Assembly: GCA_965219085.1 (NCBI GenBank)
Contig: OZ244720.1
Span: 320,001-384,000, forward strand
Length of the DNA stretch: 64,000 nt
DNA from: Dehalococcoidia bacterium
Lineage (GTDB): Bacteria; Chloroflexota; Dehalococcoidia; UBA2979
Reading direction: 5' to 3'
Each line of letters begins with the position of its first letter. Positions within the stretch are counted from its first letter, which is position 1. This document shows positions 9,001 to 40,635 of the stretch, one piece after another. Below the pieces are notes generated by a model that made no database searches, had not been told where the DNA came from, and saw only the letters and a program-made list of their open reading frames with translations. The position numbers and the translations under genes are program-made.

Positions 9001-9394
9001 AAGTCGCCGACCACGCGCCGTCGGTCGTGGTCACCGTGCGCATCTGCACGTCGTAGCCGACGCCGTTGTCGAGCCCCTCGAGGGTGTAGGTGAGGTCGCC
9101 CGACCCGGTCGTCCAGATGTTGTCGACCACGGTCCAGTTGGCGTCGGCCTTGTCCGCCGCGTCGCTGCGGATGTAGCGCAGGTCGTAGGCGGTGATGCCG
9201 GTCACGCCTGTGGGCGCGGTCCAGGCTACGGTGAGCGAGCCGTCGGCTGGGGTGACCGAGTCGATGGTGGGGACGGCGGGCGTCTGCGCCTCGGCCCTCC
9301 CGCTGTAGAACACGAGCGACAGCAGCATGACCAGCAGGATCGAGCCTCTTGTCAGGTGTGATATGGAGTCGGTGGCCGTGCCCCGAGGATTCAA
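1..9394 (-). CDS. Giant secreted protease-adhesin A (>3130 aa, 3' end outside window): signal peptide, 2 FN3, PPC-like domain, S8 kexin-like peptidase + P-domain, 4 FN3, long cadherin-like array
   Basis: Missing from the ORF track, consistent with no stop before the window edge. Segments translated by hand; the frame at TTG 9394 (GAGGT upstream) matches the frame at position 1. Signal ...LLVMLLSLVFYSGRAEA/QTP. Catalytic motifs VVDSG, HGTAVTG, AGNG, GGTSAATP (~7290-8280); P-domain ends FKSWKLTAYGH; repeated DFE/VTVTDVNE cadherin motifs. Confidence 0.9.
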   Translation of the reverse strand, partial: MNPRGTATDSISHLTRGSILLVMLLSLVFYSGRAEAQTPAVPTIDSVTPADGSLTVAWTAPTGVTGITAYDLRYIRSDAADKADANWTVVDNIWTTGSGDLTYTLEGLDNGVGYDVQMRTVTTTDGAWSATSTGTPQIPGPTITSVVAGAGALTAAWTAPTVATGTTISSYDARYIESAATDKADANWTVVTGVWTSGSLSYQLTGLRDSTGYDVQVRATTADDAGLWSATSTGTTSDHGDAVADATTITIGLAVPGRIDAPGDTDHFTFTLASATYVLLEAATTAGALTLTPTLFDSQGTEIDLYYLNKPGWSVIDDQGLSLYALGRLKAGTYTVGLAAAASETGSYLLGPQVATEMVMDEATCQGYSMAQSDPLYGCQWYLKNTNQYGAGGGFDINVEQAWQTTKGEGINVLVVDSGLDYLHSDLRGYEYDSGDPDDDTLGHHGGGAAVRIPLGQHGTAVTGIIAARDNDVGTRGVAPRATVYGYTVPLSILKVSELRAARPDAAVYKADTTAVSSNSWSVIVPGYHGPVDAEWLAAVEEGLTSGYGGKGVVYVWLAGNGHLPSTDTSGRQSSQANLEEMKTHYGVTVACGVNYNDVRSSFSELGANLWVCAPSNDADESLPGILSTDLHNRYVEFGGTSAATPIVSGIAALIRGANSTLTWRDVKLILAGSARKNDTSNTGWAQGALKYGSSTDQYSFNHEYGFGVVDAGAAVTLAADWTNLPSFLNISASATAEMAIPDPPVGGTASAVSSSVTLGSSVEFVEYMAIELTFNHQDFCDLLVELVSPSGTTSTLLFPFTPGGCNPANDTWRLGSARHLGESAGGTWTLRITDAANGSTGTFKSWKLTAYGHRSTPAAPTIDSIAAGSESLTVAWTAPSNTGASDITAYDVRHIRSDAMDKSDGQWTVVDDAWTSTSDTLEYTISGLIGGVQYDVQVRAVNADGDGLWSDTATGTPTTDTSPTIDSVTPGDRSITIEWTAPTNAMLGTITSYNLRYIKTSEDEAVEGNWTVVTSIWTAGSLDYTLNPTPSLVNGVSYDMQVRAVVGTDQHPWSGVRSATPRTTPGAPTIDAVTGTDGSLTVEWTAPTSDGGDEITSYDLRYIKTSEDETMDANWTVETGVWSSGDPDLEYDLMGLDTGTQYDVQVRAVNDAGAGAWSATSVGTTRPGAPAIDSVTGIARGFTVGWSAPALDGDATVTAYDLRYIETSADETMEANWTVETGAWSSGDLTATVTGLEVGTQYDVQVRAENASGKGPWSPTLMGATGAANAEPTFDDGATATRTLPENSGAGVNVVGGAITATDGDNDTLTYSLTGTDAARFEIDSDGQIKVKTGSTHTFNFESSKNSYSVTVNVRDSKDAAGNADIVIDDTIAVTIDLTNVNEAPTITNLLDTPNVPENSSGTILLMASDVDVPDTQTWSVESTHDGDKFQVASGFLSTLSFKDQPDFEAPTDVGDTAGNNTYVVTVKLTDSGGLSDTLTFTVTVTNVNETPKITTLAATYTGFNIDENTATSVVIKTYEAEDVDANSVLTWDVHGADASDFTITKNADGHGELKFANAPNFEIPADAGTDNVYDVIVRVRDAGGLGTTLMVQVTVTDVNEAPVITSPPATRSVAENSTAVHTFAASDVDASDTLSWSIESAGDGGKFETNVSTGAFTLLRFKNAPDFEMPTDVGDTAMNNTYVVTVKVTDNGSPAMSDTHTFTVTVTNVNEAPVFTSPPATADFAENGTGTVVDFDATDVDASTTLTFSMGNISDSSKFDIDSTTGVLTFKNPPDFEMPTDAGDTAMNNTYVAGVNVSDNGSPMGHDGHVVIVTVTDVNEAPEIFGDPAPSFAEIEYDATSPDLTIETYTYTDEDTNPADTITWRLASLGDDAPHFNIGSSTGVLSFNMRPDFENPFGADNEYLIRVQADDGQGGVGTFPVIVTVTNVDETPEITTTAASHTAPSFMEIEYDATSADLVVADYDGRDEEGQTISWSRTGTDAGDFSIDSTTGVLSFAQRPNFEIPDDAGTDNVYNVTVRARDTASPVNTREIEVVVTVTDVNERPDIDEDTVSSYAEIEYDFTGTRRDVHTFTATDYDMDTFAWSLLGTDAAYLEIGATSGILTFRQDAGFGHGPLPSFEHPRDDDAGDGSSNTYSVTVRATDDDASDQKSTDYAVVVTVTDVNEVPEFTGTPETAITLDEHDANDNYVVMDLADYVARDEEGGVSWSLTGTDRHDFAINADGVVTFAATPDYEAPEDSGGDNVYEFNVVATDVQSGSSRRDVSTAVTVTVGDVEEDGTLTADNLSPAAGETVTFRLTDPDGGIDTTSMTWVIQSLATGGSWARVSGVLTPAATTFPWVVDEDVTGKAIRAMVTYTDRRGSGKTALSQETAEVTADPIANAPPRFRGDSSWSVEEGPAGGAVGAPTTATDRDNDTLTYGIQPGGDSARFEIDPSSGQVRLAQALDFETTPGPLFFYLTLHDGRDADGAAEDPPAVDATRSATIDVVDVEEDGVVTLSDDEPGVATALTATLEDGDGGVSGPEWQWARSQNGRTGWTNISGATSSGYTTTLADAGFFLRATVTYTDRRGGGKSAEGITSQRVFGENQRPTFPPAEDGQRTVPENTRAGVSIGAPVAADDPESGGLTYSLSGADAAAFTIVETTGQLRVRDALDFEAKPSHSVTVEVHDGLDELGNASTAVDDTQSVTITVGNVEEPGTVTLTTDTGTMQARVEVTAALSDDDGPSGVTWQWSRSPNGRTDWVNIAGATASTYTPTLEEDRGNYIRATASYTDGHGPNKTAAQVSARVGDPPPVNSPPVFPAAEDGQREVEENAADGTAVGAPVEATDLNAGDAAVNDPLVYSLSGTDAASFDIDSGSGQISVAAGAQLDYEGKRTYRVTVEVTDGTDQNGDDDMDAIDDRQNVTITVTNVNEAPVVTGNATPSFVENGSKAVASYTAADPERDTVTWSVSGNDFWISDGGDLYFRSPPDYETQTNYTVTITATDDATTPLSRTLSVTVTVTDAEEVGTITINPLRGWDGTPFRDELYDDDGGIITGTWQWQWQRSSNRSSWEEISGAVSNSYLAGADDVGQYLRLYVTYEDRRGSGKEASAALTGRIEDSADRPISNTVPAFAETAPERSVGQGTAAGRR

Positions 9395-9484
9395 GGTGGA
9401 GGGTTACCTCGTATCCCGTCGCCGACACAACGCCCTGCCGTCATCGACGGTGCAGACCGGGTCGTGGCTCTCATCCGGTCAGAT

Positions 9485-9610
9485 CGTGACGCTCTCCCGG
9501 CATCGTGGTAAGTGCCGAGCGGCACAATTGGGACGCAAGTTTGTTTGCTCCGAGGGAGAGCGATTCTGCTAGTGAGACAGATACGTTTGCTCTGAAGGTC
9601 GCTTCGCGAG
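9485..9610. promoter_or_regulatory. Conserved ~125-bp upstream element, copy A
   Basis: GACGCTCTCCC..TAAGTGCCGAGCGGCACAAT..TTTGTTTGCTCCGAGGGAGAGCGATTC..GGTCGCTTCGCG; homologous to copies at 17.9, 25.6 and 37.5 kb, always upstream of a minus-strand surface-protein gene. Confidence 0.8.
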
Positions 9611-9676
9611 CTCTGGCTGCGAGAGTTCTGCTGCTCTTCTCATGAGTTAGCGTGAGGGCCTGGAGCTACCTCCGGC

Positions 9677-40225: not shown

Positions 40226-40247
40226 GGCTGCCTCCTTCGAATACAAA

Positions 40248-40277
40248 CGGACCCGCCTCCCTGCGGGGGCGGGTCCG
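40248..40277 (-). terminator. GC-rich hairpin followed by TTTGTATT just upstream of the recombinase RBS (terminator/attenuator-like)
   Basis: CGGACCCGCCTCC-CTGC-GGGGGCGGGTCCG, ~13-bp stem. Confidence 0.55.
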
Positions 40278-40440
40278 CGAGCGGTAGCATGCGGCTCGCG
40301 TCACCTGTCCGCGGGTGGCGCCACGGCCCGGGGTGTTTGCGCACCGCCGGGCCACCTCGTCCCCCTCAGCGTAGCGGGGCTGCGGCGAGGCGGTCAAAGC
40401 AGGGCTGCGACGAGGCGCTTTCCCGGCGATGCACCCTTCC

Positions 40441-40635
40441 CTACGGGACCTCCGGGTGCTCCCCGTCGCCTGCGTGCGAGGCTGCCCGGGTCGCGTGGTT
40501 GAGCAGGATCGCGGCGATGCGGCGCAGCCGAGCCTCGGCGTCGGGGACGGGCCGGTACTCGATGGCGACCACGCGCGGCTCCGGGCCACTGTTGTGGCCG
40601 CGCCCGTTGCGCACTTGCTGCTTCGTCGATCGCAT
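40441..40635 (-). CDS. Small protein upstream of the serine recombinase (possible accessory or directionality factor)
   Basis: 64 aa; GAGG upstream; VVAIEYRPVPDAEARLRRIAAILL; co-oriented with the integrase. Function inferred from position only. Confidence 0.5.
   Translation of the reverse strand: MRSTKQQVRNGRGHNSGPEPRVVAIEYRPVPDAEARLRRIAAILLNHATRAASHAGDGEHPEVP

Follow-up and report, generated by a model that had tools for sequence, protein, structure and literature searches.

In Dehalococcoides, according to the parts of McMurdie et al. (2011, PMC3146451) on which we draw, genomic islands lie in tandem downstream of one gene, the single-copy transfer-messenger RNA (tmRNA) gene ssrA; each is bounded by a 20-bp repeat of the 3' end of this target, and a CcrB-like serine recombinase of ~540 aa, DsiB, is encoded beside the attachment (att) site. 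About half of these islands have no integration module and are read in that account as cis-mobilisable elements gathered by accretion, and their cargo consists of niche-specific accessory genes. The staphylococcal cassette chromosome (SCC, including SCCmec) occupies rlmH (orfX) in staphylococci, where, in the sections of Hossain et al. (2024, PMC11470126) used here, CcrAB or CcrC mobilise cassettes that integrate at the 3' end of the gene and replace it; the cassettes stand in tandem with att repeats between them, and many are without ccr and are mobilised in trans. Here we analyse a stretch of 64,000 nucleotides from the genome of a Dehalococcoidia bacterium (the window; genome positions 320001–384000), in which a large serine recombinase gene stands beside a tandem array of giant secreted protease/adhesin genes, each preceded by the 3' end of one and the same helicase gene. 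A sequence-only reading of the window knew of no description of an adhesin cassette array built by a serine integrase; as regards the mechanism this was wrong, the ssrA islands (PMC3146451) and SCC cassettes (PMC11470126) being described precedents in the parts of the accounts cited.

The genome is a repeat-rich metagenome-assembled genome (MAG) in a single contig of 3.31 Mb (G000 below; other G and L labels denote other genomes and loci). The window has a guanine plus cytosine (G+C) content of 68%, and true genes were told from many spurious frames by third-position G+C. Along the minus strand, from high to low coordinates, the genes are E, F, the recombinase, D1, D2, the wreck of C, B and A (Table 1). 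Six-frame translation and tblastn identify the remnants in the array as the 3' end of a protein with DUF6094/N6 methyltransferase, ResIII and Helicase_C domains, that is, a multi-copy methyltransferase-helicase. Its sole uninterrupted copy in the genome is a stop-to-stop frame of 1403 codons at 719395–723606, which we do not call functional because it is possibly out of frame at residues ~527–640, where relatives align only on either side. A search of 99 genomes of the order recovered the 3' end of this gene in 31, frequently several times per genome. At two loci of other genomes the helicase lies behind an ArdC-type anti-restriction gene, a conjugative-element context; no homologue of ArdC was found in G000 at E <= 1e-10.

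The element carrying the recombinase was almost certainly integrated at one dinucleotide inside this helicase gene, as judged from its junctions. The recombinase has Resolvase (PF00239, 5e-25), Recombinase (PF07508, 1e-19) and Zn_ribbon_recom (PF13408, 1.5e-8) domains, all above the Pfam cut-offs, and an N-terminal YARVSD stretch that we take to be the catalytic serine motif. The top NCBIfam match is CcrB with 95.5 bits (cut-off 900), followed by XisF with 84.7 bits (cut-off 375); CcrC (69.4 bits, cut-off 900) and CcrA (63.3 bits, cut-off 700) likewise fall short of the Ccr equivalog cut-offs. The open reading frame (ORF) spans attR, its last 38 codons (38531–38644) being helicase DNA read in another frame, and residues 535–572 find their match within the helicase gene at genome 719874–719987. 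In the excised form, where the frame would continue across the rebuilt attP, the predicted tail is a different one of ~24 residues.

Over the whole genome, tblastn shows 5' helicase pieces ending at residues 1210–1211 at five loci and 3' pieces beginning at residues 1198–1216 at nine; the ends at 1210–1211 include a few chance matches, and the crossover is at codon 1207 of the 1403-codon frame, ~196 codons ahead of the helicase stop codon. The five attL junctions of the genome all run on into one identical foreign end, and the two recombinase-type attR junctions have one 26-nt arm in common, with only GA common at the switch. The attP rebuilt from these ends is an imperfect palindrome, in which the P arm matches the reverse complement of P' at 19 of 26 positions (~7.5 expected by chance), as expected for the attP of a large serine recombinase. 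A second copy of the recombinase (91%) is found at genome 2590074–2591780, and a complete second element of 26.6 kb, with both junctions present, at 2590176–2616813; its cargo is a giant gene of 4531 aa, an FN3 protein and a Replic_Relax protein. Upstream of the recombinase the two copies remain alike as far as window position 41055; the ORF at 40394–41026 in this part gave no Pfam match. An element of this type truncates the helicase and carries no replacement 3' end, and its left end is not helicase-like.

The same junction recurs in relatives. The helicase 3' end lies directly behind the recombinase at 11 of 80 recombinase loci from other assemblies. Pooling G000 with relatives, loci of G001 and G018 included, there are 14 distinct recombinase-type attR junctions that match the P arm at 18–26 of 26 positions; 12 are in other Dehalococcoidia assemblies, and some belong to recombinases just 58–65% identical to that of the window. 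By named records the bacterium falls among Dehalococcoidia (Tepidiformaceae) MAGs, several of them from sponge metagenomes. Some helicase alleles (L113, L117 and L119) have CA (His codon) instead of GA (Asp codon) as the crossover dinucleotide, and the element of G018 (L030; 15.5 kb, with a trypsin-like peptidase, a permease and an RCC1-repeat protein as cargo) has CA, not GA, at both attL and attR, which pins the crossover to that dinucleotide. Shared junctions, a palindromic attP, a P arm conserved in relatives and the matched core of G018 together make the integration as good as shown. The same recombinase and attR, followed by two tandem helicase 3' ends 1.6 kb apart, were also seen on a 9.2-kb contig binned as Gammaproteobacteria (L038), which is probably a mis-binned Chloroflexota contig.

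The array itself is made of repeated units. The order of helicase 3' end, leader and giant gene on the minus strand, which the sequence-only reading had claimed four times, was recovered four times in the window by self-BLAST of the intergenic stretches, and at least two more units lie just to the left (genome 316828–318022 and 309032–309451); gene A extends past the window edge as far as genome 318064, and behind it come the next array-type junction (defined below) and helicase 3' end. A module of ~1.4 kb (window 38645–37225) stands ahead of D, C, B and A and has three parts, namely the helicase 3' end, which carries a terminator-like hairpin, a stretch found in array units only, and a leader core of ~140 nt. 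Module comparisons refer to the fullest copy, that of unit D (37225–38650). Identity to it drops with distance, from 85–91% in C to 83–86% in B, 78–86% in A and 80% and 69% in the two units outside the window. In unit D the helicase part is the displaced 3' end of the target gene itself, and helicase copies outside the arrays resemble unit D only down to ~37975–37986. Unit C is without the reference stretch 38542–37961, and in B and A the first 70–95 codons of the helicase remnant are gone. The near-identical start noted for the remnants at 38650 and 26075 corresponds to the GA dinucleotide at 38645/38644 and 26061/26060. Alignment of all four remnants to the helicase thus gives a common crossover for D and C, and none for B and A, which start at residues ~1303 and ~1279 with their sites lost. 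The ~25 nt thought to be common to B and D2 after their stop codons turned out to be 28 nt. The pattern exceeds chance, because the identical breakpoint recurs genome-wide and in other genomes. A phase-variation or shufflon arrangement was considered and rejected, as all helicase remnants in the window are in direct orientation, with no inverted att pair.

Eight copies of the leader core occur in the genome, with 76–100% identity. It has long invariant runs, among them GCAAACAAA and the GTGCCGCTCGGCAC hairpin, and lies ~200 nt upstream of the start codons. An Rfam scan of the whole window found no family at threshold, tmRNA included, and a scan of two leaders for the sigma-70 consensus found no match. 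RNAalifold on the eight copies gave one short hairpin and a weak outer stem, and we claim no RNA structure; a promoter of another type, a 5' untranslated region and a protein-binding site are candidates for its role.

The right ends of the array units differ from that of the recombinase element. In this array-type junction the stop codon of the giant gene is followed by a spacer of 17–35 nt, a helicase-like arm of ~15–17 nt starting CGGTTCGAGAC, the crossover and the helicase 3' end. Unit C, the unit that follows A and two units of a second array (1906 kb and 1924 kb) end in it on the right, with 17–20 nt of spacer common to them, and it is present in G000, G004 and G015, which are three species of the genus. 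The arms match the recombinase-type P arm at only 4–9 of 26 positions, against 18–26 in true recombinase-type junctions. Of the att sites in the window array only the attR beside the recombinase is intact; the site of C carries a small B'-side deletion, the one after A reads GG instead of GA, and those of B and A are lost, so the array is mostly fossil.

We classified 43 distinct junction sites as contiguous helicase (15), recombinase-type (14) or orphan (14). Hand curation reduced the orphans to 11, two proving to be contiguous with an indel and one out of register. In these 11, similarity to the helicase is lost 4–23 nt upstream of the crossover as scored, or up to ~28 nt by eye with gaps, a distance on the scale of one att half-site; the sequences upstream are of at least five unrelated kinds. 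At L113 (G044), L114 and L115 (G041), L116 (G043) and L117 (G042), and in G103 and G004, a full-length helicase has behind it, on the same strand, an orphan 3' end whose start coincides with the site. The cargo in between is ~0.8 kb of unique sequence at L113, a solute symporter and a leucine-rich repeat (LRR) protein at L116, a Uma2 nuclease at L117 and in G103, and, in G004, two giant S8/FN3-type genes ending in an array-type junction. At L113 the repeat is 89% identical; it starts 21 nt ahead of the crossover and extends ~100 nt beyond the stop codon, and the two copies are followed by unrelated sequences. This fits the insertion of a unit that brought a helicase 3' end of its own, and not plain tandem duplication. 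Accretion with a replacement 3' end thus appears from these loci to recur in relatives. Near position 15923 of L115, a 30-nt deletion in one helicase copy takes out exactly the arm left of the crossover.

On balance we favour, with a modest degree of confidence, the view that the main process behind the array was serial, site-specific capture of cassettes lacking a recombinase gene, with the attachment site of the large serine recombinase as the point of entry. Units would have been captured one after another. The att site of each cassette would copy the helicase from ~15–25 nt upstream of the crossover onward and so supply a replacement 3' end. When such a cassette entered the helicase attB, a full-length helicase would be kept, an attB-like site would arise anew beside its 5' part, and the previous 3' end would be pushed downstream. 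The recombinase-bearing element may have landed in the working site after that, with the helicase 5' part lost or rearranged away later and the units remodelled by insertion sequence (IS) elements, deletions and exchange between paralogous giant genes. Repeated integration at one att site within the helicase had already been proposed from the window alone. That core is borne out by the precise recombinase element, the tandem 3' ends delimited by the site and the displaced 3' ends in relatives; the origin of the units as autonomous elements is not, and homologous exchange was involved as well.

Several observations weigh against serial capture. The window element has neither a P' end nor an attL in the window, copies of its left end being found only at five other sites of the genome, and the helicase 5' part that should belong to it is missing. 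The array-type arms resemble the helicase B arm and co-vary with the B' side in synonymous codons, which excludes attP × attB recombination with a foreign P arm as their source and calls for att sites of extended identity (SCC-like), gene conversion or one duplicated ancestral junction. Three of the 15 contiguous-class copies, all in relatives, are truncated 100–190 nt upstream of the site. Support of 97/98 joins the C-terminal modules of A and B as sisters, which fits local duplication. Left of A, the adjoining unit has a gene with 98.9% identity to one at 1900–1906 kb, the similarity ending near the 5' end of the gene and not at the att site, and the next gene leftward is 88% identical to one at 1924–1934 kb. 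Among the species representatives of the genus, the leader DNA was found in G000 only, 3 of the 18 others matching just 60–100 nt near the helicase terminator; the number and order of cassettes are therefore not comparable between close relatives. The public Logan contigs, which are too short to bridge the repeats, gave thousands of partial and repeat-derived joints, none of which reads as an excised circle, as an empty site or as an array with other cassettes.

A rival account has one ancestral junction of giant gene and helicase 3' end, perhaps the scar of a single recombinase event, multiplied by unequal crossing-over, segmental duplication and gene conversion among the many paralogous giant genes, the recombinase element being a later, unrelated insertion in the first remnant. 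The spacer and arm common to the G000 array-type junctions agree with this, as do the sister modules of A and B and the segments of 88–99.7% identity common to distant loci that end away from att sites. So does a head-to-tail run of 11 giant genes at 594–718 kb that forms one tight clade with helicase fragments at just two spots, from which it follows that giant genes amplify without the site. We nevertheless think this account rather unlikely, since it fails on the orphan 3' ends of several genomes, which have at least five unrelated upstream sequences and yet all begin within ~4–28 nt of the crossover, on the full-length helicases followed by displaced 3' ends with unrelated cargo, and on the D2 module, which is nearer to modules of G004 than to those of its neighbours.

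It had also been proposed that every unit was once autonomous, with its own serine integrase and replacement 3' end, and that the older ones lost the integrase by deletion. Recombinase-bearing elements do hold giant genes, and deletions are frequent in the remnants. The proposal misfits the recombinase-type element, however, whose P arm is contained in the recombinase gene, at its 3' end, and whose left end is not helicase-like; such an element disrupts the helicase and supplies no replacement 3' end. The array right ends, at 4–9 of 26 matches to that arm, are a separate type conserved as such in three species, and identical deletions would be needed in every unit. We consider it improbable; from their ends the array units look like recombinase-less cassettes and not decayed autonomous elements. 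A trivial origin, in which repeats were mis-joined in a long-read MAG, is more improbable still. The MAG is a repeat-rich single contig, and the window contains 98.7–99.7% copies of other loci; the units, however, differ by 9–31% in DNA and carry different deletions and IS insertions, and hence are not collapsible copies, and the same architecture is found in independent assemblies of other species. Part of window 35500–41300 is held by 17 public runs, which may include the source sample. Four were compared as Logan contigs of a few hundred bases, and these match several stretches without difference, including 40901–41374 across the breakpoint at 41055. A search of metagenome contigs with D1 found no relative.

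Homologous exchange, IS insertions and deletions also shaped the array. The D2 module groups with a module at 1866 kb and two of G004 (support 97/98) and not with its array neighbours, and the second array, at 1.90–1.93 Mb, has the same cassette genes in a different order. The 98.9% segment that ends away from the att site indicates that homologous exchange is active. Genes E and F, the former of which had been counted as part of the array, belong to segmental copies from 811–863 kb and are demonstrable neither as part of this array nor as cargo of the recombinase element; in sequence terms they are evidently recent imports, and the 5' anchor of the array appears to be gone. Middle pieces of the helicase, reported beyond E, are indeed there and are not demonstrable as the 5' partner of the array, because they lie inside the 99.7% inverted copy of 852997–863184. 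These segmental copies are also places where the assembly could err.

The transposase genes lie on the plus strand, where the sequence-only reading had read through the opposite one. The IS256-type element and the 2.2-kb composite IS are, like the IS at 44494–45680, multi-copy, a heavy mobile-element load for a genome of 3.3 Mb. Gene C is broken by three IS-type insertions, gave no Pfam match and is joined in frame to remnant B; gene B is in three ORFs, with one in-frame stop and one frame change. A C-terminal module of ~535 aa (NCH3-like and cadherin-like) is common to at least 29 giant genes of the genome, for example at 594–718 kb, 805–866 kb and 1.86–1.94 Mb, and there are many further partial matches. 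Upstream of E, a 24-nt tandem repeat (nine copies, 51821–52075) within the minus-strand ORF 51232–52377 encodes an Ala/Thr/Pro-rich stretch. In other genomes, four copies of the helicase contain a group II intron-type ORF (reverse transcriptase, maturase and HNH) at residues ~894–899.

Table 1 Features of the window and of loci compared with it (window positions unless a locus is named; ranges written with "to" follow the reading direction)
Feature	Position	Strand	Details
Gene A	2-9394	-	S8 protease (Peptidase_S8), P-domain, FN3, cadherin
Unit A module	9474-11293	-	28-nt post-stop spacer, helicase residues ~1279-1323 (11265-11100), IS, leader core 9620-9474
IS256-type insertion in unit A	~9677-11099	+	transposase (+) 9747-11060; splits module
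Gene B	11294-17754	-	FN3 repeats, cadherin-like domain, common C-terminal module
Unit B module	18545 to 17937	-	helicase residues ~1303-1395 and post-helicase stretch 18545-18105; leader core 18075-17937; att site deleted
Gene C remains	25290-25231, 23900-22746, 20216-18546 (within 18546-25290)	-	interrupted by IS
Multi-copy IS of 2.2-2.9 kb in gene C	~19847-22700	+	DUF772/DDE pair 19923-20399 and 21849-22523; IS110-type gene between
IS256-type element in gene C	~23909-25274	+	transposase (+) 24007-25230; cuts C
Unit C module	26061 to 25291	-	two internal deletions
Unit C parts	26055-25961, 25966-25759; 25761-25291	-	helicase pieces; leader and gene C start; from module comparison
Junction after D2 stop	26060-26095	-	spacer, ~15-nt helicase-like arm, GA at 26061/26060; small deletion on B' side
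Gene D2	26096-35323	-	S8 protease, P-domain, FN3, spondin, cadherin, common C-terminal module
Gene D1	35320-37281	-	FN3
D1 upstream region	37282-37693	-	includes conserved leader core ~37487-37640
Unit D post-helicase stretch	37694-38063	-	terminator-like hairpin at 37984-38001
Unit D helicase 3' end	38064-38643	-	residues ~1207 to ~1401 of 1403-codon frame; tblastn 79% over residues 1198-1401
Unit D module	38645 to 37225	-	complete copy
Leader cores in window	37487-37640, 25558-25700, 17937-18075, 9474-9620	-	from alignment
attR	38644-38671	-	26-nt P arm (38646-38671) and crossover dinucleotide GA (38645/38644)
Large serine recombinase gene	38528-40246	-	572 aa
Stretch upstream of recombinase	40247-41055	-	85% with second copy at genome 2591540-2592594 (megablast); copies diverge beyond 41055
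Gene F	41348-44008	-	near-copy of gene at 814 kb
Segmental copy	41367-44084		2.7 kb, 98.7% to genome 811569-814287
LysR gene	within 41348-54275		part of segmental-copy stretch
Segmental copy	44088-54275	inverted	10.2 kb, 99.7% to genome 852997-863184
IS	44494-45680	+	transposase (+) 44542-45516; at least 14 more genome copies at 92-98%
Gene E	45479-51436	-	Peptidase_S8, P-domain, FN3, cadherin
Decayed helicase middle pieces	52555-53231		residues 772-842 and 899-1051
Group II intron-type ORFs	L114:14268-16160, L115:16917-18809, L118:2797-4689, L120:2634-4655		second mobile element with fixed site in helicase

Large repertoires of eukaryote-like surface proteins are a known trait of sponge symbionts, and how such sets are gained and varied is poorly understood. 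We find that some of the giant genes stand in arrays linked to a single serine-recombinase site, and that this site is conserved in many Dehalococcoidia assemblies. It is tempting, as a tentative and wider reading, to suppose that in sponge-associated Dehalococcoidia serine recombinases run an open cassette platform in a helicase gene of mobile-element type. Recombinase-less cassettes might each bring a replacement helicase 3' end, an att site that mimics the helicase and, behind a shared leader, a ready-to-express gene for a giant protease/adhesin or an LRR protein; they might be captured and reshuffled at one dinucleotide, so that the surface repertoire is varied and the target gene left intact. 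If the cassettes are mobile, uncultured symbionts would have here a definite and testable way of exchanging host-interaction genes, and the principle of SCC and the ssrA islands would be extended to a new target, a new phylum-level setting and new cargo. The defined attP, attB, attL and attR, with a natural matched-core pair of GA and CA, make the recombinase easy to test.

The array had been called integron-like. Integrons have the tyrosine recombinase IntI, attI sites and folded attC sites, and their cassettes are short, mostly lack promoters of their own and are read from a single one. The window shows none of these defining features, having a serine recombinase, att half-sites of duplex type and units of 7–12 kb, each with its own upstream leader of ~400 nt; only the outcome is alike, namely captured units standing in order beside a recombinase. 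The fdxN element with XisF and the sporulation-gene elements are serine recombinase elements that split a protein-coding gene and have the recombinase gene at one end. They are single and are excised during development to restore the gene, and we know of no tandem stacking or replacement 3' ends described for them. The window element is like them in that a gene is split at one site with the recombinase at the element end, and XisF is its second-best NCBIfam match.

Closer likenesses are to the two systems described at the outset, as far as the parts of their accounts used here go. With SCC the locus has in common a large serine recombinase, a target gene whose 3' end the cassette would replace and, here and in relatives, tandem cassettes, many of them recombinase-less, separated by repeats of the target 3' end. 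It differs in a CcrB score below the cut-off, a target other than rlmH, another phylum and other cargo, in a replaced 3' end of ~190 codons compared with few, and in that mobilisation in trans is known for SCC. The ssrA islands belong to the same class of bacteria and agree in the tandem repeats of the target 3' end, the serine recombinase by the att site and the many units without an integrase. The likeness to DsiB is drawn from its description and not from a comparison of sequences; no DsiA, RecF, ParB or Mom-type module was seen beside the window recombinase, where no systematic search for the six-gene integration module was made. Unlike in the ssrA islands, a multi-copy methyltransferase-helicase serves as target, ~0.6 kb of its 3' end with the terminator forms the repeat, and the cargo consists of giant secreted protease/adhesin genes with a conserved leader. 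We found no published description of this particular system in the literature, supplementary files aside. By analogy, the window locus would work like SCC and the ssrA islands while being a member of neither; what is new is the multi-copy helicase target of mobile-element type, the long replaced 3' end, the recombinase ORF that crosses attR, and the cargo.

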